This document shows, one piece after another, positions 3,780 through 18,123 of a stretch of 64,000 bases of DNA. Both the position numbers and the translations under genes were made by a program. The stretch comes from a virus. How positions within the stretch are numbered: position 1 is the first letter of the stretch; each line of letters starts with the position of its first letter. Below the pieces are notes generated by a model. It was not told where the DNA came from and did not search any database. It saw nothing but the letters and a program-made list of their open reading frames with translations. The stretch spans positions 10,983 to 74,982 of IMG/VR virus record IMGVR_UViG_3300017917_001616; one strand, written 5' to 3'.

Positions 3780-3832
3780 AAAAAACTTCTTATCTTGCGC
3801 TCTTATTATAAATATAATAAAAGGAGTGCAAG

Positions 3833-6790: not shown

Positions 6791-6870
6791 TAATTTAAGA
6801 TGATAAATAAAAGTGTAAGATAATTTTATCTCAGATGATAAATAAACTTATATAAGGAATACAAAGTTCA

Positions 6871-6960
6871 ATGATTACATGCGGAACCACAGCACAGAAT
6901 ACATGGTCACTAGGGGGCAATCCTAGTGTCGATTCCGTGCGGGCGGGCCGAGGTAGTTAA
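6871..6960 (+). CDS. Putative leader peptide (29 aa)
   Basis: aagga RBS, MITCGTTAQNTWSLGGNPSVDSVRAGRGS, followed by terminator. Confidence 0.5.
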   Translation: MITCGTTAQNTWSLGGNPSVDSVRAGRGS

Positions 6961-6985
6961 GAACAAACCAAAAAGTTCGAACACC

Positions 6986-7017
6986 AAGGCCCCAAGCGAA
7001 AGCAGAGGGGCTTTTTT
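6986..7017 (+). terminator. Intrinsic terminator after leader ORF
   Basis: aggcccc...ggggctt plus T-run. Confidence 0.7.
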
Positions 7018-7202: not shown

Positions 7203-7213
7203 GCTCTTTGACA
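7203..7213 (+). promoter_or_regulatory. rrn-type boxA antitermination site
   Basis: gctctttgaca downstream of ttgaca promoters at 7056 and 7147. Confidence 0.65.
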
Positions 7214-7559: not shown

Positions 7560-7635
7560 TCCGTCTTAGCTCAGTTGGTAGAGCAGGTGACTGTTAATCA
7601 CCGGGTCGCTGGTTCGAGCCCAGCAGACGGAGCCA
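7560..7635 (+). tRNA. tRNA-Asn(GTT)
   Basis: Canonical cloverleaf, CCA. Confidence 0.93.
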
Positions 7636-7643
7636 AAAATTAT

Positions 7644-7722
7644 CTGGGTGTAGCTCAGCTTGTGTTAGAGTGCTCGCCTTGGAAGCGAGAGGTCGAAGGT
7701 TCAAATCCTTTCACCCAGACCA
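7644..7722 (+). tRNA. tRNA-Pro(TGG)
   Basis: ctcgc-cttggaa-gcgag, CCA. Confidence 0.9.
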
Positions 7723-7810
7723 GATACATCACGGTGCTGCATAAGCGAGGCTTAATCATAAATGCAGTTAAATCACTAACGGGCAGCGGTTAGCAGAGCC
7801 AAAAACATAC

Positions 7811-7898
7811 GGAGCGGGGGCAGGATGGTAATGCAGCAGATTGCTAATCTGTAGAGGGGGCAACTCCTCACTGGGTTCGACTCCCAGTCGCTCCGCCA
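7811..7898 (+). tRNA. tRNA-Ser(GCT)
   Basis: Long variable arm, G73, CCA. Confidence 0.92.
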
Positions 7899-7970
7899 AT
7901 GGCACACTAGCATCAGGCTAGTCCAGACCGTAAGGTTAACGGTGACAAGCAGGGAGAGTCCTGCACACAC

Positions 7971-8080
7971 ATTCTACTTTAAACTATGCACAAGGCGTAG
8001 GCCACGCCGATGTTATGGCAACAGGTTGGCATTTGCTGACTAGGTGGTTCGATTCCACAGTGTATAGTTTAAAGTAGAAT
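7971..8080 (+). ncRNA. Closed-stem small RNA with T-loop hairpin (family B)
   Basis: attctactttaaactatgcac / gtgtatagtttaaagtagaat enclosing gtggttcgattccac. Confidence 0.55.
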
Positions 8081-8082
8081 AT

Positions 8083-8159
8083 TGCGGGGTAGAGAAGTGG
8101 TCATCTCGCTTGGCTCATAACCAAGAGATCGCTGGTTCGAATCCAGCCCAACGCAACCA
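8083..8159 (+). tRNA. tRNA-Met(CAT), initiator-like with irregular acceptor stem
   Basis: tgcgggg start, ctcataa loop, extra A in the 3' acceptor strand. Confidence 0.75.
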
Positions 8160-8262
8160 AATTTCCAGTCTTAGTTACTAGGATCTCTCAGTTAAAAGCT
8201 GTCCTAGTGTAAAGCAATGTCCTAAATGGCTTGCTTCTAAGGTAGCTGGAAAGCCAACAGTT

Positions 8263-8353
8263 GGACACTTGGCAGAGATGGATTATTGCACCGGTCTTGA
8301 AAACCGACGACGCTGAAAGGCGTCCCAGGGTTCGAATCCCTGAGTGTCCGCCA
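8263..8353 (+). tRNA. tRNA-Ser(TGA)
   Basis: Long variable arm, CCA. Confidence 0.92.
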
Positions 8354-8359
8354 TAAATT

Positions 8360-8433
8360 GGCCCTATGGTATATGGGTATTACACTAGGCTGTCTACCTG
8401 GTGAACGGGGTTCGAGTCCCCGTAGGGTCGCCA
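8360..8433 (+). tRNA. tRNA-Asp(GTC)
   Basis: ctagg-ctgtcta-cctgg, G73, CCA. Confidence 0.9.
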
Positions 8434-8436
8434 AGA

Positions 8437-8606
8437 TACTTGAGTGTTAGTAAGTGAAAGGTGCAACAGTTTAGCGGCTGTTGTAACAAGGAGATATGCA
8501 ATCCTCCGAGTAACTGTAATAACGGACCCCAAGGACGCAAGTCCATAACTGCACGGCCGAAAATTTGCAGATAATGCTGTTGATGTTGTGGCAACAGGCT
8601 CAAGTA
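8437..8606 (+). ncRNA. Putative multibranched small RNA
   Basis: tacttgagt/gctcaagta closing stem with several internal hairpins. Confidence 0.4.
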
Positions 8607-8634
8607 ATAAAATAAAAAAAAGATAAAAAAAGTG

Positions 8635-8706
8635 TTGACAATGACAACAACACATACTATATTAAGAACATAAGCAGCAAACGTGTTGTTTATGCGCTCT
8701 TTGAAA
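8635..8706 (+). promoter_or_regulatory. sigma70 promoter plus boxB-like hairpin and boxA
   Basis: ttgaca..tactat, hairpin taagcagca/tgttgttta, gctctttgaaa. Confidence 0.65.
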
Positions 8707-8717
8707 ATTTGGTAAAC

Positions 8718-8902
8718 ACTGTGTTTAAAACTAACACGATACTAGATACTGTGTATAATGCACCGTTGGTTAGTGACCAGGTATTAGTAGGCTGAACAGC
8801 GTTGGGACGCAACTGTCGCAAAGACAGGAGGACTGGTTCGATTCCAGCAGTAGCAATTTACTCTCGAGGTGGGTTGCTTATTGTGTTAGTTTTAAACACA
8901 GT
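8718..8902 (+). ncRNA. Long closed-stem RNA with T-loop hairpin
   Basis: ~23-bp IR actgtgtttaaaactaacacgat / attgtgttagttttaaacacagt; ctggttcgattccag inside. Confidence 0.5.
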
Positions 8903-8907
8903 ATAAC

Positions 8908-9765
8908 ATGGGCGGTATAGCGTCCGACTTAAGGGTAAGTGCAGTAATGCACCCAAAGCAAGGTTTCCTATAAACTTGCGCTGTAGCAATACAGTCCATC
9001 TATGCAAGCCTGAACTAGAGTTGACTCGGTTATCCGAAAGCAACTCCCGTCCGTAGAAAGGCGGTAGGCAGTAAGTTAGGAATGGTGTCCGAAAGGATAG
9101 TCGCAGAGCCAGTCGGTGAGCGATAAGAGGGTTGGCGCCCAAACACCGTTCAGCCAAACTAACGAATGCTGAAAGTTAACAGGTAGCTACAGAGTCTGAG
9201 CCCGCAAGCAAAGGCATGGTAGCATCTTGAGAGTGGAAGGGTTAGGCCCCGGATACTTGAAAAGACGTTGAGTAGTCCGCAAGACGAAAGACAGTTGGTG
9301 TGTTGTATTCTGTATCTAACAAGATATGGAGCAACTGGGGCAGCACATCGAAGTAGGTTCGCAATATTGCATAACGGTAATGCAATCGTATTATCAAACG
9401 ACAGACTGTGGGTTCGATTCCCACTGTTGCACACAAAAGCGAAAGACTGTCCCGGTATACTACGAAAGGTGGTTAATGCCACACTCGAAAGAGAATGTGG
9501 TCTACAGATGCTCGCAAGGCGGACGTAGTTGTTCGGAAAGATAGCGTAACTTCTTAGCGGAAGTGAACTGCTCGCAAGGCAGGCGAAGGATAGAAGGACG
9601 AGTAGTAGTATGCGACGAGAGAAACGCCACTCTCCAAAAAAGGCACCACTGGAAGATACAGGATGACCGTAAAAGGCTCCTGTGGATAACGAGAGAACGT
9701 GGCTCGCAAGGCTAACGGTAATGCTCAAAGGCTTCCATCCTATGCTGTAATCTCAAGCTAGGCAA
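8908..9765 (+). ncRNA. GOLLD-like giant ncRNA
   Basis: ~860 nt, no credible ORF, dense GNRA-capped hairpins (gcaa, gaaa), in a phage tRNA cluster, 3' end gctgtaatctcaagc; matches my recollection of GOLLD. Confidence 0.7.
9361..9430 (+). ncRNA. tRNA-like domain embedded in the GOLLD-like RNA
   Basis: gcaata/tgttgc acceptor, D arm, 8-nt anticodon loop, gtgggttcgattcccac T arm, no CCA. Confidence 0.65.
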
Positions 9766-9769
9766 AACA

Positions 9770-9855
9770 TTACGTTTTGATGATACACATATATACTAAC
9801 AGAGGCTTAGTCCGGAGAGCGTTATGCCAAGTTTATGTGTATCTTCTAAGCGTAA
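9770..9855 (+). ncRNA. Closed-stem small RNA (family A, copy 1)
   Basis: ttacgttttgatgatacacata / tatgtgtatcttctaagcgtaa. Confidence 0.55.
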
Positions 9856-9869
9856 AATAAATACTTTAC

Positions 9870-9945
9870 GGGCTCTTAGCTCAGTTGGGAGAGCGGTAGC
9901 TTTGCAAGCTTCAGGTCAGCGGTTCGATCCCGCTAGGGTCCACCA
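9870..9945 (+). tRNA. tRNA-Ala(TGC)
   Basis: G3:U70, tttgcaa loop, CCA. Confidence 0.92.
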
Positions 9946-9952
9946 AAATAAT

Positions 9953-10027
9953 GCGGGTGTAGCTCAGGGGTAGAGCGGCTGCTTGCCAAGCACCAGGTCA
10001 CGGGTTCGAATCCCGTTACCCGCTCCA
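9953..10027 (+). tRNA. tRNA-Gly(GCC)
   Basis: cttgccaag, U73, CCA. Confidence 0.9.
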
Positions 10028-10081
10028 AGTTAGGTTTTCGGTTAAGCCATTTAAAACCGTAAATGTATGTGAGAGGACAAT

Positions 10082-10336
10082 ATGAAAACTTTAGAAGAAA
10101 AAGAACAGTTTTACACTAAATGTGGAGAACTATTGGGAATAGAACACGTTTACACTACACCGGTTCCTAGACGTAACAGATGGAATACAAGACGATTAGG
10201 TAACGGTCGGTATCCCGGGTTTGGGTTGATACACTGTTATGGTAGTAGTGTGCGAGTTATGAGTAAACACGGAACACGTATGTTTAGCTCATACGAAGCG
10301 GTATATGAATATTTGTTAAAAGTTTTGCCCTTATAG
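10082..10336 (+). CDS. Hypothetical protein (stop codon inside next tRNA)
   Basis: gagga RBS, 84 aa. Confidence 0.65.
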   Translation: MKTLEEKEQFYTKCGELLGIEHVYTTPVPRRNRWNTRRLGNGRYPGFGLIHCYGSSVRVMSKHGTRMFSSYEAVYEYLLKVLPL

Positions 10337-10402
10337 CTCAGCTGGTAGAGCATCTGATTTGTAATCAGAGGGTCGGGAGTTCAAGTCTCTCTGGGGGCAC
10401 CA
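10327..10402 (+). tRNA. tRNA-Thr(TGT)
   Basis: tctga-tttgtaa-tcaga, CCA. Confidence 0.93.
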
Positions 10403-10408
10403 AAATTT

Positions 10409-10484
10409 GGCTCGGTAGCAAAAGCGTCGAATGCGTGATCTTGCAAAGATCGAGGTGGTGGTTAAAGTCCATCCTGAGCCTCCA
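10409..10484 (+). tRNA. tRNA-Cys(GCA), divergent
   Basis: gatc-ttgcaaa-gatc, U73, atypical D and T loops. Confidence 0.7.
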
Positions 10485-10494
10485 AAAACTAAAT

Positions 10495-10578
10495 GGTCGG
10501 TGGCCCGGATGGTAAGGGGATGGACTGCAACTCCATAGCACTGCAAAGTAATGTGTTCGATTCACATACCGACCTCCA
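10495..10578 (+). tRNA. tRNA-Cys(GCA) with extended variable region
   Basis: atgga-ctgcaac-tccat, U73, CCA, 84 nt. Confidence 0.8.
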
Positions 10579-10597
10579 AGTTTTTATAAATATATGT

Positions 10598-10987
10598 ATG
10601 AAGATATTTGAGATCACAGCAAAACTTGTAAACAAGTATTATCCAGAGCCGGATGAGACTGAAGTTGGGTCTGATGTAAAGAATGTAAGAAATGAAGTAA
10701 ATCGAGTTGTTACATTGCCAATGAATCAAATTAAGTCTAGATTCGAAGGCGACGATAAAGCAGATCCTGCGTGGACTACAGCTAGAGCAAATATCGAAAA
10801 CATTAAAAAACAAATTAAAAAAGATGTCAAACAGCTACCTCCAATAGTTGTGAGAAGGCTTCCAAGAGAAAATACGTATCAAGTAATAGATGGTCACCAT
10901 CGTTACTTTGCATTTCGTGAAATGAATATTAAACTTATACCAGCTATAATACTAAATGCTGGACAAGTTACTGGTGACAAATATTAA
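10598..10987 (+). CDS. ParB/Srx N-terminal domain protein
   Basis: PPIVV...YQVIDGHHRYFA; TATAAATA late promoter upstream. Confidence 0.8.
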   Translation: MKIFEITAKLVNKYYPEPDETEVGSDVKNVRNEVNRVVTLPMNQIKSRFEGDDKADPAWTTARANIENIKKQIKKDVKQLPPIVVRRLPRENTYQVIDGHHRYFAFREMNIKLIPAIILNAGQVTGDKY

Positions 10988-10996
10988 AAATACAAT

Positions 10997-11073
10997 GCGG
11001 ATGTAGGCCAATTGGTAGAGTCGCTGCGCTTAGAACGCAGATGTTGGGGGTTCGAGTCCCTCCATCCGCACCA
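10997..11073 (+). tRNA. tRNA-Leu(TAG), short variable loop
   Basis: ctgcg-cttagaa-cgcag, CCA. Confidence 0.88.
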
Positions 11074-11081
11074 AAGGTTGA

Positions 11082-11156
11082 TGGGAAGTAGTTCAGTGGT
11101 AGAATAACTGACTTTGAATCAGCAGGTCGGAGGTTCGAGCCCTCCCTTCCCAACCA
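11082..11156 (+). tRNA. tRNA-Gln(TTG)
   Basis: U1:A72, ctttgaa loop, CCA. Confidence 0.9.
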
Positions 11157-11164
11157 AAAAATAT

Positions 11165-11241
11165 CCGAGTGTAGCTCAGTTTGGTAGAGCGCCTGGTTTG
11201 GGACCAGGATGTCGTGGGTTCAAATCCTGCTACTCGGACCA
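11165..11241 (+). tRNA. tRNA-Pro(TGG)
   Basis: cctgg-tttggga-ccagg, CCA. Confidence 0.92.
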
Positions 11242-11311
11242 ATAAATTGTAGTGTTGAGCAACGACAACAAGACTGCTACAGCGGTCTACTACATTCGGT
11301 AAGCGGGACCG

Positions 11312-11492
11312 TTCGTTGTAACAGCCAAACAAGACGACCGAAGTAAACTAGTTTAGACCTAGCGAAAAGGGCCAGCTGCCTGTGACGTGCATTCCGGGGT
11401 TAGAGAAGCTGGGGATATGGTTTCGGTGTTTACCTGAACAAAATATACTGTGGAATGTCGTTTTCTGTCTAAGAATAATCTGTTACAACGAA
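11312..11492 (+). ncRNA. Putative ~180-nt rod-like RNA
   Basis: ttcgttgtaacag/ctgttacaacgaa plus nested aagacgac/gtcgtttt, gtaaac/gtttac, ccagct/agctgg. Confidence 0.45.
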
Positions 11493-11537
11493 ATAGTAAC
11501 TCCGGATGATAGTAACCGGTTTATATAGAGATTCAAT

Positions 11538-11612
11538 GCGGGTGTAACTCAGAGGTAGAGTGTCAGCCTTCCAAGCTGTTCGTCGAGGGTTCGATTCCCT
11601 TCGCCCGCTCCA
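11538..11612 (+). tRNA. tRNA-Gly(TCC)
   Basis: cttccaa loop, U73, CCA. Confidence 0.93.
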
Positions 11613-11616
11613 AATT

Positions 11617-11691
11617 GCCGGTGTAGCTCAGTGGTAGAGCGACGGTCTCCAAAACCGTGCGTAGTGGGTTCGATTCCTACCTCCGGCGCCA
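11617..11691 (+). tRNA. tRNA-Trp(CCA)
   Basis: acggt-ctccaaa-accgt, CCA. Confidence 0.9.
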
Positions 11692-11942
11692 AACTTGGGA
11701 GTTAGCCGCCCAAAACCAGTGTCAACGACTTCTCATACAACTTGACACTCTAATAAACTTTTGTATCTGAGACGAGGCCATCTGCGTAGTGATGGCAGGC
11801 GTTGGTTGTGTTGGTCTTGAAAGAAACGCAACGGGTATTGATGCATGCCTAAGGAAAGGGTTGGCCCCCAGCATCGACTATTTTATGACCTAGCGTCACT
11901 GTATTGGTCTAGTCACCCTTATACACCTAGGTCTTCTTATTT

Positions 11943-12017
11943 GCGCCCTTGGACAAGATGGATTGTCAGAGGATTCTAACCCTTAGTAGACGGGATCGTT
12001 ACCCGTAGGGCGCACCA
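11943..12017 (+). tRNA. argU-like tRNA with irregular anticodon arm (TCT, or CTA in another register)
   Basis: gcgccct/agggcgc acceptor, gagg-attctaac-cctt. Confidence 0.65.
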
Positions 12018-12387
12018 AATATTTCTGGGTTATCCGAGACAATCTCCGCCACGGGCGGCTTGGCTGTTTATAAGTCTAGCAAAGCTAGTTAGATACTATA
12101 GGACATAGACGGTAACTTGGGGCGCTATAAATAAAAGGAGCAATACATGAGAATGACCAAAGAAGAAATTGAAACCGCAGTTCGAGTTTGGCCAGCTAAT
12201 GTAAAGGCTCCGATAACTCGAGACGAACAAATACAACTAATTATTACAGCACGTGAACGTCACGCTGCTAACAGAGAAAAAATTCGACAACTTTTAAAGG
12301 AGAATAATAATGTCGTAGATTGAATATGCTTGTAAGGAACTAGTTTTCCATTTCAACAAAAAACACTTAGAAGATGATACTATCCCG

Positions 12388-12903
12388 ATGTGGGTTATCA
12401 AGTTTCGTGGTGAAACATATTATGTTAACCATGTAGATTGCAGCGTTCCGTGGTCAACCAAAGAAACGCCAGATAACAATCACACCAAAGGCAGTATTAA
12501 AGTTAAAAACTGCTTAGTAGTAATTGATGATTCAAACACAGCAATTATTACACCATTGACTGAAGCAGATAAGAAAAAACTCGAAAGTAAGAAAAAATTT
12601 ACACGTATTATTACTAGCTATGGTGCAAAGTTGAAGGCAGCAATCAACGACTTAGGACTTGAAACTGGTTATATTAAAAAAGCAGGCGGTGGCTGTAGCA
12701 CGTTATGGTTCATCACCGAGTTGTATAATTACGATGAGTTTTTTCAACTTAAGTTTGCTATGACAGGCACAGACTTGCGAGTGTTAAAAGAAAACGAAGA
12801 CTACTTCAAAGCGTATGGTTCATCAACAGATGACCAAGAATATATCGACGACGAAGAAGATTTGTATGATGACGAGGATTACGAATCATTATACGAAACT
12901 TAG
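12388..12903 (+). CDS. Conserved phage hypothetical protein (true start probably 12310, interrupted by TAG)
   Basis: ORF; upstream in-frame ATG TCG TAG with aaggag RBS. Confidence 0.7.
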   Translation: MWVIKFRGETYYVNHVDCSVPWSTKETPDNNHTKGSIKVKNCLVVIDDSNTAIITPLTEADKKKLESKKKFTRIITSYGAKLKAAINDLGLETGYIKKAGGGCSTLWFITELYNYDEFFQLKFAMTGTDLRVLKENEDYFKAYGSSTDDQEYIDDEEDLYDDEDYESLYET

Positions 12904-13011
12904 ACTACAAACGTAGCAGTAACTAGGTTACTGCCCGTATAAAACCCCCGCTGTGATCCCGAGATAAGAACACAGAGGACCAGCACCCCACGCTTTCGAG
13001 CGTGGGTTTTT

Positions 13012-13086
13012 GCGGGATTAGCTCAGTGGTAGAGCCGCTCGTTTACACCGAGAAGGTCGGGAGTTCGAACCTCTCATCCCGCACCA
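13012..13086 (+). tRNA. tRNA-Val(TAC)
   Basis: tttacac loop, CCA. Confidence 0.92.
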
Positions 13087-13108
13087 ATTATTTTTATGGA
13101 CGTTATAT

Positions 13109-13735
13109 ATGGTTAAAATGACTTGTTACTCGGATGTTCCTGGATGGGGAGATTTTCCGATAGTATACCGTGATTTAGTTGCGTCACTGCCTGCTAACGC
13201 TAGTATACTTGAATTAGGTGTTGGGTTTGGACGTGGAACATGGACAATGCTCGACGCAATGACGGATACCATGTCACTTTATATAATTGATAGTTTTAAT
13301 GCAGTAGACACAGTAGATTTGTGGGAAAATTATTTCGAAACAGGTAGTCCGGTAACACTAAGTCGGGAAAATATATTAGAGTATGGAAATATGACTAAAA
13401 TATATAACCACTACGAAATCTTTTTACATAATATATGTCAACACACACGTTACTCTCAAATACAAGCAATACATGCTATATCAAGCGACGAGTATATTGC
13501 TTCGAATTTTAAGAATGATTTTGATCTTGTATTCCTAGACGGCGAGCATTCATATGAAGCTGTAAAGCAAGAACTTGAATACTTTAAAAATTCTGGCATA
13601 ATTTCTGGACATGACTACAATATTGAAACTTGGCCGGGTGTAATACAAGCGGTAACCGAATTTCTTGATAGTAACCCCGATCGGTATTTAAAAGTATACG
13701 AAGAAAATGAAGTATTTGTGATTTGCCGTCGTTAA
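13109..13735 (+). CDS. Class I SAM-dependent methyltransferase (Methyltransf_24-like)
   Basis: ILELGVGFGRGT, FDLVFLDGEHSYE, GHDY. Confidence 0.85.
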   Translation: MVKMTCYSDVPGWGDFPIVYRDLVASLPANASILELGVGFGRGTWTMLDAMTDTMSLYIIDSFNAVDTVDLWENYFETGSPVTLSRENILEYGNMTKIYNHYEIFLHNICQHTRYSQIQAIHAISSDEYIASNFKNDFDLVFLDGEHSYEAVKQELEYFKNSGIISGHDYNIETWPGVIQAVTEFLDSNPDRYLKVYEENEVFVICRR

Positions 13736-13773
13736 ACTGAATAATAAATAGTTTTAATTACGGAGATTACAAT

Positions 13774-14637
13774 ATGGTCTATCATTTAGAAAATTCTATC
13801 TGGAATAAAAAAAATCATCCAGAAGGACTTTCGCTGCCTATGATCGAAGATTTACCTAGGGTCAACTTATTATTAAAGCCTGCAATAGAAAGAAAGGCAA
13901 AAGACAAGATTGTTATTGACCTTGGGTGCGGCAGCGGATTATTGGGACTATATGCTTTTGACTACGGTGCAAAATTTGTTTATTTTGTTGAACAAGACCC
14001 TTTCATGATTGATACATTACGTAACAGTTTGCCTAAAATACTAGATCCTAACAAATTTAAAATTATTCATAAGTATGCACAAGACTTAACTTATGATGAT
14101 TTTGATTGTGGCGAACCAGAGTTATGTGTTAGTGAGTTACAAGGGCCGCAACTGTATGACGAAGGTTGCTATCAATGCACAATTCCTATACGAAGCATGT
14201 ATCAAAACTTAGTATTCATACCAGAAGTGTATCGACTCGATATCATTGAATCAGATGTAGACTATAGCAAATGGCCGTGGCCTCAAAGCGAAACACGTTT
14301 GTTAGAGCATTACAAATATATGTATTCTAAAATAGGTTGGACAAATGGGTTTATCGGATTAGACCGTCCTATCGAATTAGTAAATCCGAAAAAAATAGGT
14401 GAGCTTGTATACGACACAAGATCTGGTATTTTTAAAAACACATTTTCTACTGTTATTACTGCGCCAGAAGGCAAAATGATTAACATGTTTGGTTTTTGCC
14501 AATCTGACGAATTAGAAAATGTTACAACTAAATTTGGTTGGTATGTTTATCCCAGACAGGAACAGATGTTATTGACAGTTCATAATCCCAATACAGCTAT
14601 TGATTCTAGGATTATGTTTTCTTTAGCATTACAATGA
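13774..14637 (+). CDS. SAM-dependent methyltransferase (PrmA/PRMT-like motif I)
   Basis: VIDLGCGSGLLG..A...GAKFVYFVE, VSE. Confidence 0.75.
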   Translation: MVYHLENSIWNKKNHPEGLSLPMIEDLPRVNLLLKPAIERKAKDKIVIDLGCGSGLLGLYAFDYGAKFVYFVEQDPFMIDTLRNSLPKILDPNKFKIIHKYAQDLTYDDFDCGEPELCVSELQGPQLYDEGCYQCTIPIRSMYQNLVFIPEVYRLDIIESDVDYSKWPWPQSETRLLEHYKYMYSKIGWTNGFIGLDRPIELVNPKKIGELVYDTRSGIFKNTFSTVITAPEGKMINMFGFCQSDELENVTTKFGWYVYPRQEQMLLTVHNPNTAIDSRIMFSLALQ

Positions 14638-14643
14638 AATTAT

Positions 14644-14717
14644 GCCGGTATAGCTGAGTGGTTTAGCAGCTGATTAGTAATCAGCCGACGGGAGTTCGAT
14701 TCTCTCTACCGGCACCA
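14644..14717 (+). tRNA. tRNA-Thr(AGT)
   Basis: gctga-ttagtaa-tcagc, CCA. Confidence 0.88.
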
Positions 14718-14735
14718 ATACTAAATACATGATAC

Positions 14736-15548
14736 ATGTTTGTAAAGGAATCGGCAATGGGTGTAAAATTTGTAATAGGGTTAACAGATGTAACAATACA
14801 TGAATCGTTTTATCCGACTCCGGACGTTGTTAACACATATCAAGGTCCCGCAGATCAATTTGAAAAAGTGGCATATTATGTTTTACAAAATAATAACGCT
14901 TCAATTGAGAAAGCATCGATAGAATGGACATTGGATACAACTCTTCCTGCTGTCAATACTGTGTTAGATATCATTGATACTGTAAAAATATCGCCCTTAA
15001 ATGTTACACACATATATGCTCACAAGTATACACAAGAAGTATTGCCTAGTTTGTTTGACACAGACTTTATCATTGAAATGAAAAATTTGGTCCCAGTGGA
15101 TGGGTTAGTGTTCCCTGAGTATACTAGTGTTGATTATGATAATATTTCAACAAACAAACCTCCGATGTATTGCAGTTTAGAATTAGACGGCACATGTGCT
15201 ACATTAACAAGTCAGGTTGAAGATGCACAAACACTTGCATACGCTATGTTTAACAATGATTTATCATATTTGGTTAACGGGCCTATGATAAAATATGTTT
15301 ATCCTACGTTTAGGGTAAATTTTAGACATAATGGAGAAACAGTGTTAAACAAATCTATGTCAGTGCAACAAACACAATGGATGCGTGATAACAAAGATTT
15401 TCTTGAATCTAAAGGATATTTCGAGTCTGATAATAAAAACAAATTAGGATCTCTTGTGATAGGTCAACTTGTAGGTAGCTATCAAGATGCATTTGCAAAA
15501 GCACAACAGTATACCAGAATTTGCAGAGTTGAAATAATAAGGGATTAA
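14736..15548 (+). CDS. Hypothetical protein (paralog of next gene)
   Basis: Shared KFVxGLTDV start and ..RICR C-terminus. Confidence 0.75.
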   Translation: MFVKESAMGVKFVIGLTDVTIHESFYPTPDVVNTYQGPADQFEKVAYYVLQNNNASIEKASIEWTLDTTLPAVNTVLDIIDTVKISPLNVTHIYAHKYTQEVLPSLFDTDFIIEMKNLVPVDGLVFPEYTSVDYDNISTNKPPMYCSLELDGTCATLTSQVEDAQTLAYAMFNNDLSYLVNGPMIKYVYPTFRVNFRHNGETVLNKSMSVQQTQWMRDNKDFLESKGYFESDNKNKLGSLVIGQLVGSYQDAFAKAQQYTRICRVEIIRD

Positions 15549-15554
15549 TATTAC

Positions 15555-16316
15555 ATGCTAAAATTTGTAGTAGGCTTAACAGATGTAGTTGATTACGAAG
15601 GGTTTGTATACAACGAGTCAAACAAAGATGATCCAGGTGTATATTACAACATACGTAAAGCATCTGTAGAAATAGAAAAAGCAAAATTAGAATGGAAGAT
15701 ATACACAGATATTGATGCTGCTAAAAATTCCATTATGCTTTGGGAAAAAATAATAAGAATACCTCATTTGTGCATGATCGGTTCTCATTCACAAGAATAC
15801 AAGTTTTATCCAGAGTTTAAAGAATATAATTTTTCTATCTCTTATGTTAACTTATTGCCAATGGGATTAGAATACGTAAAGAAGTTTACAGATGATGATT
15901 ATGATAAGTGTAATGGCGAACCTGACTTTGGAGATCTATGTATACATATGTGCGAAGACATAAACGGGTTACCACAGCACGATTCTAATATTATCGGTGC
16001 CTTTAGTGCAAATGATATAAATTTGTTACCGGATGCATCAATAAGAGGTGATGTATTACCTAGATACTTTATTAATTTTCCGTTACGTGGAAATTCAAAA
16101 CCAAATCGTTGGATCAAGCAAGCAAATTTTGCAGAGTTTGTTGACAACAATAAAGAAACCATCATATCAAAAGGGTATGATATAAGTTCTAATAGAATCG
16201 AAAATTATGGTCCTATTACAATTGGTAAACTGCTTAACGACCCAAACGAAACTTACGATTTCTTAACAAAATATCCGAGGATATGCAGAACAAGTTTTGT
16301 CCAAACAGAAGAATAA
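15555..16316 (+). CDS. Hypothetical protein (paralog of previous gene)
   Basis: Shared KFVxGLTDV start and ..RICR C-terminus. Confidence 0.75.
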   Translation: MLKFVVGLTDVVDYEGFVYNESNKDDPGVYYNIRKASVEIEKAKLEWKIYTDIDAAKNSIMLWEKIIRIPHLCMIGSHSQEYKFYPEFKEYNFSISYVNLLPMGLEYVKKFTDDDYDKCNGEPDFGDLCIHMCEDINGLPQHDSNIIGAFSANDINLLPDASIRGDVLPRYFINFPLRGNSKPNRWIKQANFAEFVDNNKETIISKGYDISSNRIENYGPITIGKLLNDPNETYDFLTKYPRICRTSFVQTEE

Positions 16317-16413
16317 TTTTTTTTGTGTAATACGTCTAAATTGTCAAAGAAAACGGTTGACGAAGATAAATAAAAGCACTATATTACTAACATAAGCAAA
16401 AGGAAATCAAGAG

Positions 16414-16503
16414 ATGACTCACAATACTAAACACATGATTAGCATTAAGCGTTTTGAACGCCACGAGTATCTCTTTGGATTCTCGGAGGGTTATAGCGGA
16501 TAA
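16414..16503 (+). CDS. Putative attenuator leader peptide (29 aa)
   Basis: aagga RBS; MTHNTKHMISIKRFERHEYLFGFSEGYSG; after ttgacg..tatatt promoter. Confidence 0.6.
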   Translation: MTHNTKHMISIKRFERHEYLFGFSEGYSG

Positions 16504-16529
16504 GTGTATATACACATAAACGCAATGAC

Positions 16530-16561
16530 ACCCTCCAGTAGAGATACTAGGAGGGTTTTTT
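16530..16561 (+). terminator. Conditional intrinsic terminator (attenuator)
   Basis: accctcc..ggagggt plus T-run; alternative pairing with the leader ORF. Confidence 0.75.
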
Positions 16562-16697
16562 ATTAGGCTAAAGTGGAAATGCGGAACGAGACTGCGAGTA
16601 ACCACTATAAACAAACTCAAATGGGCGTGTTAGAAGATGAAACGACCGGTGGTAACGGCGGAGTAAAAATCTAGCAGCAAGCTAATAATTTTGTTTT

Positions 16698-16768
16698 GGC
16701 GACACGGCAAGTGCCGACTCGGCTCTCATAAGGCTGATGATTTGGAGCGTTACCAAATGTCGCTACCA
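16698..16768 (+). tRNA. Minimal tRNA(CAT) with reduced D arm
   Basis: ggcgaca/tgtcgct, cggct-ctcataa-ggctg, atypical T loop, CCA. Confidence 0.6.
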
Positions 16769-16770
16769 AC

Positions 16771-16896
16771 AACTCTATTTTTAGAATAGGCAGAGCAAGT
16801 AAGCAAAAGTAGTTACATTCCCTAGTGTAGCGAAAAGAGGAGCAGGTTTAGGGACCCGGAGCATATCCCCTCGCTGCCTTTTGTAAAAGTAGAGTT
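16771..16896 (+). ncRNA. Closed-stem small RNA (family B)
   Basis: aactctatttt...aggcag / ctgcct...aaaagtagagtt. Confidence 0.5.
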
Positions 16897-16900
16897 TTAT

Positions 16901-16975
16901 TGCCTCTTAGCTCAGTGGTAGAGCAATCCCCTGATAAGGGATAGGTCACTAGTTCGAATCTAGTAGGGGCAACCA
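16901..16975 (+). tRNA. tRNA-Ile(GAT)
   Basis: atccc-ctgataa-gggat, CCA. Confidence 0.92.
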
Positions 16976-16981
16976 ATTATA

Positions 16982-17059
16982 TCTCGCATAGGACTACTCG
17001 GTGATGGTCGCTGGCCTTTCAAGTCGGAGAAACGGGTTCGAAACCCGTATGCGGGACCA
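16982..17059 (+). tRNA. tRNA-Glu(TTC)
   Basis: ctggc-ctttcaa-gtcgg, CCA. Confidence 0.8.
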
Positions 17060-17064
17060 ATAAC

Positions 17065-17140
17065 GCTTCTAACTGTCTAATGGAAAGGCAGGCGCCCGAT
17101 AAGCGTCTAGAAGGAAGTTCGATTCTTCCTAGAAGCACCA
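17065..17140 (+). tRNA. tRNA-Ile(GAT), C33 variant
   Basis: ggcgc-ccgataa-gcgtc, CCA. Confidence 0.75.
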
Positions 17141-17147
17141 AACACAT

Positions 17148-17233
17148 GTGCAGGTGGGTGAGTGGCTTAAACCAGCAGACTGTAACTCTGCCGCTGAGAA
17201 GCAACGTTGGTTCGAATCCAACCCTGCACACCA
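17148..17233 (+). tRNA. tRNA-Tyr(GTA)
   Basis: Long variable arm, ctgtaac loop, CCA. Confidence 0.92.
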
Positions 17234-17347
17234 AATATAGATCAAGCCTAGTTGATCTCGAAAGTCGCTAGGCCCGCCCTTGCAAGAGGTTATAGAAAGG
17301 ATCGAGACTTTCTATGTGGGATCGTTCCCCACCAAGGGTATCGTTAC

Positions 17348-17439
17348 GGGGGATGCAAGTAAGGCTAGGTGGTCCTGGCGGCTGGCTGTAAACCAGTCCC
17401 TGCAAAGGCAAGGCGTTCGAATCGTCCCATTCCCCACCA
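17348..17439 (+). tRNA. tRNA-Tyr(GTA), atypical
   Basis: 8-bp acceptor gggggatg/cattcccc, enlarged D region, CCA. Confidence 0.7.
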
Positions 17440-17444
17440 AATAT

Positions 17445-17520
17445 CCCTAGGTAGTTCAGTTGGTAGAACACATGCCTGAAGAGCATGGTGTCGGCGGTTC
17501 GATTCCGTCCCTAGGGGCCA
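17445..17520 (+). tRNA. tRNA-Phe(GAA)
   Basis: catgc-ctgaaga-gcatg, CCA. Confidence 0.9.
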
Positions 17521-17523
17521 TAT

Positions 17524-17599
17524 CTGTCTGTAGCTCAACTGGAAGAGCAAGGGATTTCTACTCCCTAGGTTGCGAGTTCGACTCTTGCCAGGCAGGCCA
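17524..17599 (+). tRNA. tRNA-Arg(TCT)
   Basis: aggga-tttctac-tccct, CCA. Confidence 0.88.
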
Positions 17600-17601
17600 A
17601 T

Positions 17602-17676
17602 CCTGATGTAGTGATAATGGTAGCACACTGAGCTGTGGACTCAGTAGAGTTGGATCGTAACCAACCGTCAGGACCA
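17602..17676 (+). tRNA. tRNA-His(GTG), A73 and no G-1
   Basis: ctgag-ctgtgga-ctcag, ends ggacca, preceded by T. Confidence 0.88.
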
Positions 17677-17766
17677 AAAAAATTAAAAAAAGATGAAAAT
17701 AGTTGTTGACTCCAAGATGTCTTGAATGTAGTGTGTATATGTAAGTTGAGAACAACGGAGACAACA

Positions 17767-18123
17767 ATGAAAGTTATCGTCCAGCATATCGACCAAGATC
17801 GTGATACTGGTGCTGTTTTGGGCTTTACTAATGTTGCAGAAGTTAACGTGTGGCACACCGAAGACATCGACGAAGCACTCGAATACGCTTATCGTTGGAC
17901 CAACAACGTGTCAGGTTCGTGGAGCATCAAGTTGCGAGATATGCGACTGCGTGATGGCACTATGTTTGAGAATGGTGACTACAACGATGATGTAACTGTG
18001 CTTGTTCCCTTGCATAAGGGCGGAGTTGGTTTGCGTAGCACTTCGATGTTTGACCGTATGATTCTTAACGGCAAGACATACAAAGTATCGATGGTTGGGT
18101 TTACTGAAATGGAGACTGCATAA
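17767..18123 (+). CDS. Hypothetical early protein
   Basis: ggag RBS after promoter at 17706; GLRSTSMFD motif. Confidence 0.7.
   Translation: MKVIVQHIDQDRDTGAVLGFTNVAEVNVWHTEDIDEALEYAYRWTNNVSGSWSIKLRDMRLRDGTMFENGDYNDDVTVLVPLHKGGVGLRSTSMFDRMILNGKTYKVSMVGFTEMETA

Follow-up and report, generated by a model that had tools for sequence, protein, structure and literature searches.

The closest described precedents for the arrangement reported here are the attenuators of enterobacterial amino-acid operons (trpL, hisL, leuL and pheL, together with the multivalent thrL and ilvL, which sample several amino acids), in which a short translated leader precedes an intrinsic terminator and the position of the ribosome selects between antiterminator and terminator. 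The leader ORFs that lie before vmlR, lmo0919 and bmrCD are likewise ribosome-mediated attenuators, in this case of antibiotic-resistance genes; they answer drug-stalled ribosomes and gate protein genes without any matching of codons to product. In T-box riboswitches the same choice between terminator and antiterminator is set by the status of a tRNA, through leaders that bind uncharged tRNA directly (by means of a specifier loop and the T-box bulge) and that need no ORF. Finally, the long tRNA array of the Anabaena trn operon is induced by translational stress, with control exerted at the promoter by the RHH repressor TrcR, which acts on direct repeats (PMC8421152, PMC10272220). The words ‘attenuation’, ‘leader’ and ‘terminator’ are absent from the main text of the paper on the Anabaena trn operon, and full-text searches of the literature for attenuation or leader peptides associated with phage tRNA genes returned nothing relevant and no published account.

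The locus described here, found in the DNA of a phage, is in our judgement reasonably likely to be a ribosome-mediated (leader-peptide) transcription attenuator that senses the decoding of its own block’s codons. As in the amino-acid operons, a short and apparently translated leader lies 5' of an intrinsic terminator, the position of the ribosome is predicted to pick antiterminator or terminator (with a ribosome at the stop codon covering the antiterminator strand), and the regulatory codons mirror the regulated product. In contrast to those operons, control falls on genes for tRNAs and other stable RNAs rather than on biosynthetic enzymes; the sensor codons cover 6-13 amino acids, sampled one to three times each, rather than forming runs; the predicted antiterminator has only 5-11 bp and rests on a hairpin enclosing the stop codon; and the element is encoded by a phage, with one repeat per tRNA block. 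Unlike trpL, it displays no clear 1:2 anti-antiterminator, and an untranslated leader is therefore predicted to read through rather than to terminate. With the resistance-gene attenuators it would share the relief of a terminator by a general slowing of ribosomes on a short upstream ORF (a sensor, in effect, of translation failure); with T-boxes, a decision set by tRNA status; and with the Anabaena operon, an accessory tRNA array that is turned on when translation is impaired. A T-box covariance model found no match at E <= 1 in positions 16000-18000 of the analysed DNA or in the related contigs L090, L100, L104 and L095.

The analysed DNA (‘the window’) is a 64-kb part of a 74,982-bp IMG/VR viral contig, whose completeness is rated at about 19% and which is thus regarded as a fragment of the genome of an uncultured jumbo phage. 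The DnaB-like helicase encoded there shares 54% identity with the counterpart in Pseudomonas phage PA5oct, a relationship that makes the phage no more than a distant neighbour of PA5oct and Atu_ph07. The window contains 41 tRNA genes (as called by ARAGORN), spread over 3.7-23.2 kb, and holds two leader cassettes and two tRNA blocks. A sequence-only reading had proposed that one of these leaders gates a tRNA operon; the promoter, the Shine-Dalgarno sequence, the 29-codon ORF, the terminator and the two complementary segments that it described are all present at the positions it gave. The gene immediately upstream (15555-16316), which has a paralogue adjoining it at 14736-15548, gave no Pfam match, and among GenBank phages there is no close DNA or protein relative of either the leader region or this gene. 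The protein that it encodes is only 53-57% identical between phages (the window versus L082 and L083) whose leaders are 97-100% identical in DNA, a pattern of mosaic conservation.

Related cassettes were gathered from IMG/VR and from one metagenome contig, using an invariant 17-mer from the first RNA behind the leader (‘module B’, described below), which retrieves 27 viral stretches, and a leader pattern, which retrieves nine. The same cassette design occurs in 21 instances (19 of them unique) on about 20 related viral contigs and encodes at least three families of peptide. Each combines a small ORF and its Shine-Dalgarno sequence with a stop-codon hairpin, a bulged CCCTCC...GGAGGG terminator and a T-run, and the distance from the stop codon to the terminator stem is 25-33 nt in every one, so that the geometry of ribosome-coupled attenuation, which the sequence-only reading had recognized in a single leader, extends across the whole collection. 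The nearest relative (L002) is 96.6% identical across the region; in L082 the leader is 97% identical and the ORF the same base for base, with the upstream gene at 71% nucleotide and 57% amino acid identity and the tRNA-Glu gene at 78%. The leader at 16414 belongs to family 1, which is represented by nine distinct versions of 29-32 codons; family 2 has ORFs of 34-38 codons, family 3 includes the second cassette of the window (6837-7017), and family 4 is found in L089 and L103. More distant cassettes, with other peptides and other terminators, are found upstream of module B in L110 and L111. All families share only a Shine-Dalgarno sequence, an ATG, 29-44 codons of open frame and a stop codon whose distance is fixed; no sequence relationship links their 5' domains.

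All of the elements of the leader lie on the + strand. At 16357-16385 is a sigma70-type promoter, TTGACG-17-TATATT, with 10 of 12 consensus matches, and inside its spacer, at 16365-16374, is a phage promoter element, GATAAATAAA. This element has three occurrences in the window, every one of them upstream of the two cassettes, and TTGACR-17-TATAnT is retained in L085, L090, L093, L096, L100 and L102. An equal dual arrangement precedes a gp32-like gene at L113:8493. The idea that GATAAATAAA is a leader-specific signal was rejected, since the promoter of the gp32-like gene carries the same element and TATAAATA precedes several ORFs. The latter is the T4 late-promoter consensus; ten copies are present in the window (for example at 3807, 19269, 42817, 58901 and 62962), all on the coding strand and several of them 13-60 nt upstream of ORF starts. 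A related sequence, ATAAATAAA, is situated within the sigma70-type spacers at 16365 and at L113:8500 (the gp32-like gene), and the placement of the two motifs suggests dual early/late promoters.

Downstream of this promoter, a Shine-Dalgarno sequence (AAGGA, 16400-16404) precedes an ATG at 16414-16416, and a motif of the AAGGA/GAAAG type is found 8-19 nt 5' of the ATG in all cassettes. The ORF (16414-16503, with its stop codon at 16501-16503) comprises 29 codons, of which codons 2-22 are the ‘sensor’ codons discussed below and codons 23-29 form a Gly-rich tail that bears the switch strand. The frame is unbroken in all 21 cassette instances, and indels preserve it. Searches of Pfam and PHROG with the peptide gave no match. 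Within families, peptide motifs are kept (KHMF and EYRxG, for instance, in family 1); synonymous sites are conserved, and segments of the peptide vary while RNA hairpins persist (SIREC versus KRFER). The periodicity of substitutions by codon position carries no information, because family 1 is saturated. The KHMF codons form a perfect 12-nt palindrome, AAACATATGTTT, in L093:3712-3910(-) and in most family 1 relatives, which is degenerate in the window (AAACACATGATT) and which could be either an RNA hairpin or a DNA operator.

The terminator had been thought to open directly onto nine tRNA genes. Instead, its first product 3' is a structured RNA, ‘module B’ (about 16566-16690, + strand), that has no promoter of its own in the window and is followed, also on the + strand, by an atypical tRNA-like gene with a CAT anticodon and an odd T-loop (16698-16768), by a long-stem RNA, ‘module C’ (16771-16896, with 23-nt arms that are 87% complementary and an unrelated interior), and only then by the first tRNA sub-block (16901-17676: Ile, Glu, Ile, Tyr, a tRNA-like gene, Phe, Arg(TCT) and His). 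ARAGORN calls seven canonical tRNAs at 16901-17676, and the number reaches nine only if two genes that it missed are included, namely the CAT gene, whose homologous position in L082 is called as tRNA-Met, and a long-armed, Tyr-like gene at 17350-17433, which has a weak match to the tRNA-Sec model (27.9 bits, below threshold). Long stems similar to module C (attctattttcaca...tgtg.agttgaaaatagaat) come after module B in many relatives.

Module B carries an invariant core, TGCGGAACGAGACTGCG, at 16580-16596, a closing stem that covaries (GTGG/CCAC, AAGG/CCTT, GTGC/GCAC) and a further, variable hairpin with GAUGR...GAAAAAU as its flanks. It is present on 27 viral contigs, where it always heads tRNA arrays, behind either a leader terminator or a promoter of its own. 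A reading of it as a small ORF was rejected, as indels disrupt the frame in L086, L087, L089 and L101 and the stem covaries. Searches of Rfam with module B and with the leader yielded nothing above noise, and a comparison by reading of T4 rnaC and rnaD with these RNAs found no obvious likeness. Bacterial matches to the 17-mer number 65, which is chance level, and the wider signature is present in only one of them. That sole ‘bacterial’ contig with the full signature (L124, DATFKV010000138.1, 5 kb, binned as Cryomorphaceae) is probably phage DNA mis-binned into a MAG, and is a possible hint at the host group.

In family 1, module B starts 6-12 nt past the T-run (about 8 nt in the window), which leaves no space for a promoter, and a promoter scan listed no promoter-like site on the + strand across 16386-16900. 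In L086-L088 module B stands under its own TTGACA-17-TATATT promoter; in family 1 the promoter is instead upstream of the leader. In family 2 (L087, L106 and L109) a tRNA(CAT) called by ARAGORN begins 2-6 nt past the printed terminator stretch, again with no promoter space, and L086, L088 and L108 have a homologous tRNA-like sequence, identified by reading alone. A promoter concealed in the tail of the terminator, where some relatives have TTTAAT, was considered and judged unlikely, there being no usable -35. The RNAs of families 1 and 2 would therefore be made only by read-through, and their terminator must be either leaky or regulated. Such a promoter-free gate is not a general rule, as sigma70-type promoters are found downstream of the family 3 and family 4 terminators. 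The second cassette of the window (6837-7017, + strand) is an example: it consists of GATAAATAAA, a Shine-Dalgarno sequence, a 29-codon ORF (6871-6960), a hairpin, a GGCCCC/GGGGCC terminator (6987-7011) and a T-run, and downstream of it come two TTGACA promoters, which have A-tracts, a boxA-like GCTCTTTGACAA at 7203, and then the other tRNA block. Because these sigma70-type promoters follow, read-through is not needed there. Its homologues are at L085:391 and L093:1556-1754(-).

The presence of two leaders and two blocks in one genome allows the relation between codons and tRNAs to be examined by contrast, by counting only those codons that can be decoded by one block and not by the other and applying Fisher’s test. 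In the window, one leader has 20 codons specific to its own block versus 3 for the other block, and the second leader has the opposite bias (7 versus 18; p = 4.4e-5). The codons of the leader at 6837-7017 match the block at 7560-14717. The match recurs in L085 (p = 1.5e-4) and in L093 (p = 3.6e-4), where the leader-plus-block units are in reversed order; since the family 1 unit there precedes the family 3 unit, leader and block appear to have moved together. No association between codon and block is seen when this DNA is read in the +1 and +2 frames, a control by which nucleotide composition was rejected as the cause. Counted by amino acid, and with the last seven codons removed, the corresponding tables are 13 versus 1 and 3 versus 12 for the window (p = 1.2e-4), 14 versus 1 and 5 versus 15 for L085 (p = 8.9e-5), and 15 versus 3 and 1 versus 17 for L093 (p = 4.1e-6); the persistence of the association makes the first ~22 codons look like a sensor, and the tail like a switch.

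Against the sub-block at 16698-17676 only, 14 of 28 codons of the 16414 leader match, with a background of 26% (p = 0.006). A Cys codon in the leader accompanies a tRNA-Cys gene in the block, and the clade of the window has neither. Family 2, L110 and L111 display no codon enrichment, and offer no contrast, as almost all of the tRNA genes there lie behind one leader. Since the three informative phages are relatives of one another, these statistics represent two or three ancestral pairings of leader and block rather than many independent ones. The suggestion that the leader employs codons of several downstream tRNAs is thus borne out, and can be sharpened: the match is to the block behind that leader, and is specific to the reading frame.

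The 177-nt leader RNA has a predicted minimum free energy of -46.8 kcal/mol (z = -5.1, with 0 of 200 shuffles as good). Its 5' domain (16402-16484, + strand) is a long-range helix that encloses two small hairpins in both the minimum-energy and the centroid structure. In the minimum-energy fold the Shine-Dalgarno/start region (16402-16420) pairs with codons 18-24 (16464-16484), a feature that was not part of the sequence-only reading and that is also predicted in most relatives; an inner hairpin of this domain displays a compensatory change (GCGUU/AACGC versus GCAUU/AAUGC). As a candidate 1:2-type helix, RNAalifold proposed a short GCC.CGAG/CUCG..GGU pairing that would hold part of the switch strand and for which there was no covariation; in single-sequence folds the helix that sequesters the start region is preferred. 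The intrinsic terminator (16530-16561, + strand) is an 11-bp stem with a bulged A (16549), a GNRA loop (GAGA) and a T-run; its letters are ACCCTCCAGTA-GAGA-TACT(A)GGAGGGT at 16530-16556, followed by T5 and A, its predicted energy is -14 to -16 kcal/mol, and a simple terminator scan overlooked it because of the bulge. The upper stem of four pairs covaries, with seven versions among the cassettes, and a swap from C-G to G-C is present in four sequences. In terminators of the CCCTCC type there is always one bulged base (A or C), which lies four pairs beneath a loop that is either GNRA or five bases long, irrespective of the sequence of the upper stem. This conservation of shape exceeds what termination needs and could reflect contact with a protein.

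A second hairpin (16490-16529, + strand), absent from the sequence-only reading, encloses the stop codon; it lies precisely between GGAGGGT in the ORF and ACCCTCC in the 5' arm of the terminator, and bridges the two. An equivalent, unrelated in sequence, is present in nearly all cassettes (mean z of -2.0; p <= 0.05 in 13 of 21).

The 3' half of the ORF holds two segments (both on the + strand) that could compete with the terminator. Segment ‘b’ (GGAGGGT, 16485-16491, situated 10-16 nt ahead of the stop codon) is exactly complementary to 16530-16536, the 5' arm of the terminator, and segment ‘a’ (AGTATCTCT, 16466-16474) is the exact complement of 16540-16548, forming a lineage-specific extension; their pairings with the terminator are nested. 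The proposal that these make up an antiterminator stands in the sense that both complements are exact and are mutually exclusive with the terminator, but the 9-nt pairing is not conserved and the 7-nt pairing is weak in relatives. The former, AGTATCTCT with AGAGATACT, is confined to the clade of the window; it amounts to 5 bp in most relatives and is absent in L090, and in L082 a change of the loop from GAGA to GCGA keeps the GNRA loop and breaks the pairing. As a general feature, pairing of ‘a’ with its complement was consequently rejected.

For the shorter pairing the comparison is mixed. A GGAGG/GAGGG motif is held in three different reading frames (tcG GAG Ggt, acT GGA GGt and GAG AGG Gta); in L085, L100 and the second cassette of L093 the antiterminator is lengthened to 8-11 nt, tracking their own upper stems; L108 has GGAGGGC with a GCCCTCC terminator, and the cassette at 6871 has GGGCC with GGCCCC. 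In the largest clade (L093 and L096-L098) the 7-nt antiterminator is down to 5 bp, and in family 4 (L089 and L103) no such pairing was found. Covariation among related phages, which had been named as a check on the model, is thus found in the terminator stem but not in the antiterminator of that largest clade, where the ORF does not follow the G-C swap. When the last 15 codons were recoded synonymously, the predicted pairing was mostly not above chance (P = 0.013-0.82, or 0.0075-0.55 in a version based on duplex energy); all of these peptides have Gly-rich tails, which by themselves supply G-rich RNA. The 7-nt GGAGGGT/ACCCTCC antiterminator may therefore be described as a recurring feature, and one not clearly in excess of what a Gly-rich tail provides.

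Folding models predict an order of events. With the 3' arm made unavailable, the 5' arm of the terminator pairs mainly with nucleotides -22 to -6 of the ORF (counted from the stop codon) in the minimum-energy structures of all 19 unique sequences, and the predicted antiterminator helix stacks on the stop-codon hairpin. Nascent prefixes of the window’s leader form the antiterminator up to position 16550, and the terminator once its whole 3' arm is present. Masking by a ribosome at the stop codon, as had been postulated, would cover nucleotides -22 to -6, and in the model such a mask abolishes most or all of the pairing in 15 of the 19 unique sequences. At equilibrium the terminator is favoured in the window (-38.6 versus -34.3 kcal/mol), and it is the thermodynamic ground state by 2.4-15 kcal/mol across the cassettes; the switch must therefore be kinetic. 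The terminator of trpL is likewise favoured over its antiterminator at equilibrium, and a stop-to-stem distance of 25-33 nt is approximately that expected between the A site of a ribosome and a closely coupled polymerase.

From these parts we infer that the ORF is translated, that its translation is coupled to termination, and that the response runs in the following direction. Transcription would begin at the dual promoter (16357-16385), and a ribosome would load on the short leader and read its 29 codons, of which the first ~22 call almost only for amino acids served by tRNA genes downstream of the terminator. GGAGGGT is carried by the last seven, Gly-rich codons, and this strand, stacked on the stop-codon hairpin, could pair with ACCCTCC in the 5' arm. 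If decoding is fast, the ribosome would be at the stop codon while polymerase makes the terminator; GGAGGGT would be covered, the stop-codon hairpin melted, and transcription would end. Should the ribosome be delayed, halt at a sensor codon or fail to load at all, GGAGGGT and the hairpin would capture the 5' arm first, and read-through would supply module B and the tRNAs. Overall, the supply of just those tRNAs would be under negative feedback, and on this model the phage probably makes more tRNA when ribosomes slow.

A broader form of the attenuator model, which we hold tentatively and with slightly less than even confidence, is that each tRNA block in this clade of giant phages is under its own ‘codon-sampling’ leader, in which the first ~22 codons test the tRNAs of the block and the Gly-rich tail and stop-codon hairpin turn ribosome delay into read-through. 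Such a leader would act as a homeostat of the tRNA pool that also fires under host defence or stress; it would be the first case of attenuation control of tRNA genes, and leader and block together would form a mobile module.

The alternative that survives best, and that we still consider unlikely, is that the ORF is simply a small gene for a functional micro-protein, expressed from a promoter of its own and ending in a strong but constitutively leaky terminator, and that the stable RNAs arise by unregulated read-through and processing. The conservation of peptide motifs within families (KHMF, EYRxG), the separate promoters downstream of the family 3 and 4 cassettes and the statistical weakness of antiterminator pairing once the peptide is fixed are all as such a gene would have them. 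It leaves unexplained, however, why the peptide matches its tRNA block in one frame only, in three phages of which one has the reversed order, and why three unrelated peptide families share the stop-to-terminator spacing, the stop-codon hairpin and the G-rich tail. Moreover, synonymous sites are conserved, RNA hairpins are kept where peptide segments change (SIREC versus KRFER), and the peptide belongs to no Pfam or PHROG family that could be matched.

Conservation at the nucleotide level is compatible with the converse view, in which the leader functions as RNA only (as a riboswitch-like, protein- or tRNA-binding switch, or as a processing or stability element) and the ORF is incidental. Nucleotide conservation is indeed very high, folding is strong (z = -5.1) with the start region sequestered, internal hairpins show compensatory changes, and the position of the terminator bulge and the GNRA loop are kept in all versions. 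Yet the only features that unite all of the families are those of a gene (Shine-Dalgarno sequence, ATG, open frame and fixed-distance stop), on 5' domains that are unrelated; the frame is preserved through indels, the codon-to-tRNA association is specific to that frame, and no Rfam family, T-box included, was matched. We regard this explanation as improbable.

A third idea, raised in the sequence-only reading, is a special case of the attenuator, in which the leader chiefly detects host anticodon nucleases or translation shut-off and switches on replacement tRNAs; it fits the predicted logic of read-through whenever leader translation fails, as well as the proposal (PMC10264068) that phage tRNAs counter tRNA-targeting defences, but nothing in the sequence singles out nuclease targets, and the sensor codons (for 6-13 amino acids) follow the content of the block and fit supply homeostasis equally well, so that this role, while compatible with the attenuator, is speculation and has in our estimate little chance of being the principal one.

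Why phages carry large sets of tRNA genes, and how those sets are regulated, has long been asked. If the attenuator model is correct, the tRNA supply of giant phages would be feedback-controlled by decoding itself, and the logic of the trp operon, equipped with a multi-codon sensor, would have been turned to a new class of product. The leader would then also constitute a small and self-contained element that serves as a natural, programmable sensor of translation capacity, and the match between leader and block may provide a route to predicting operon boundaries in the genomes of uncultured phages.
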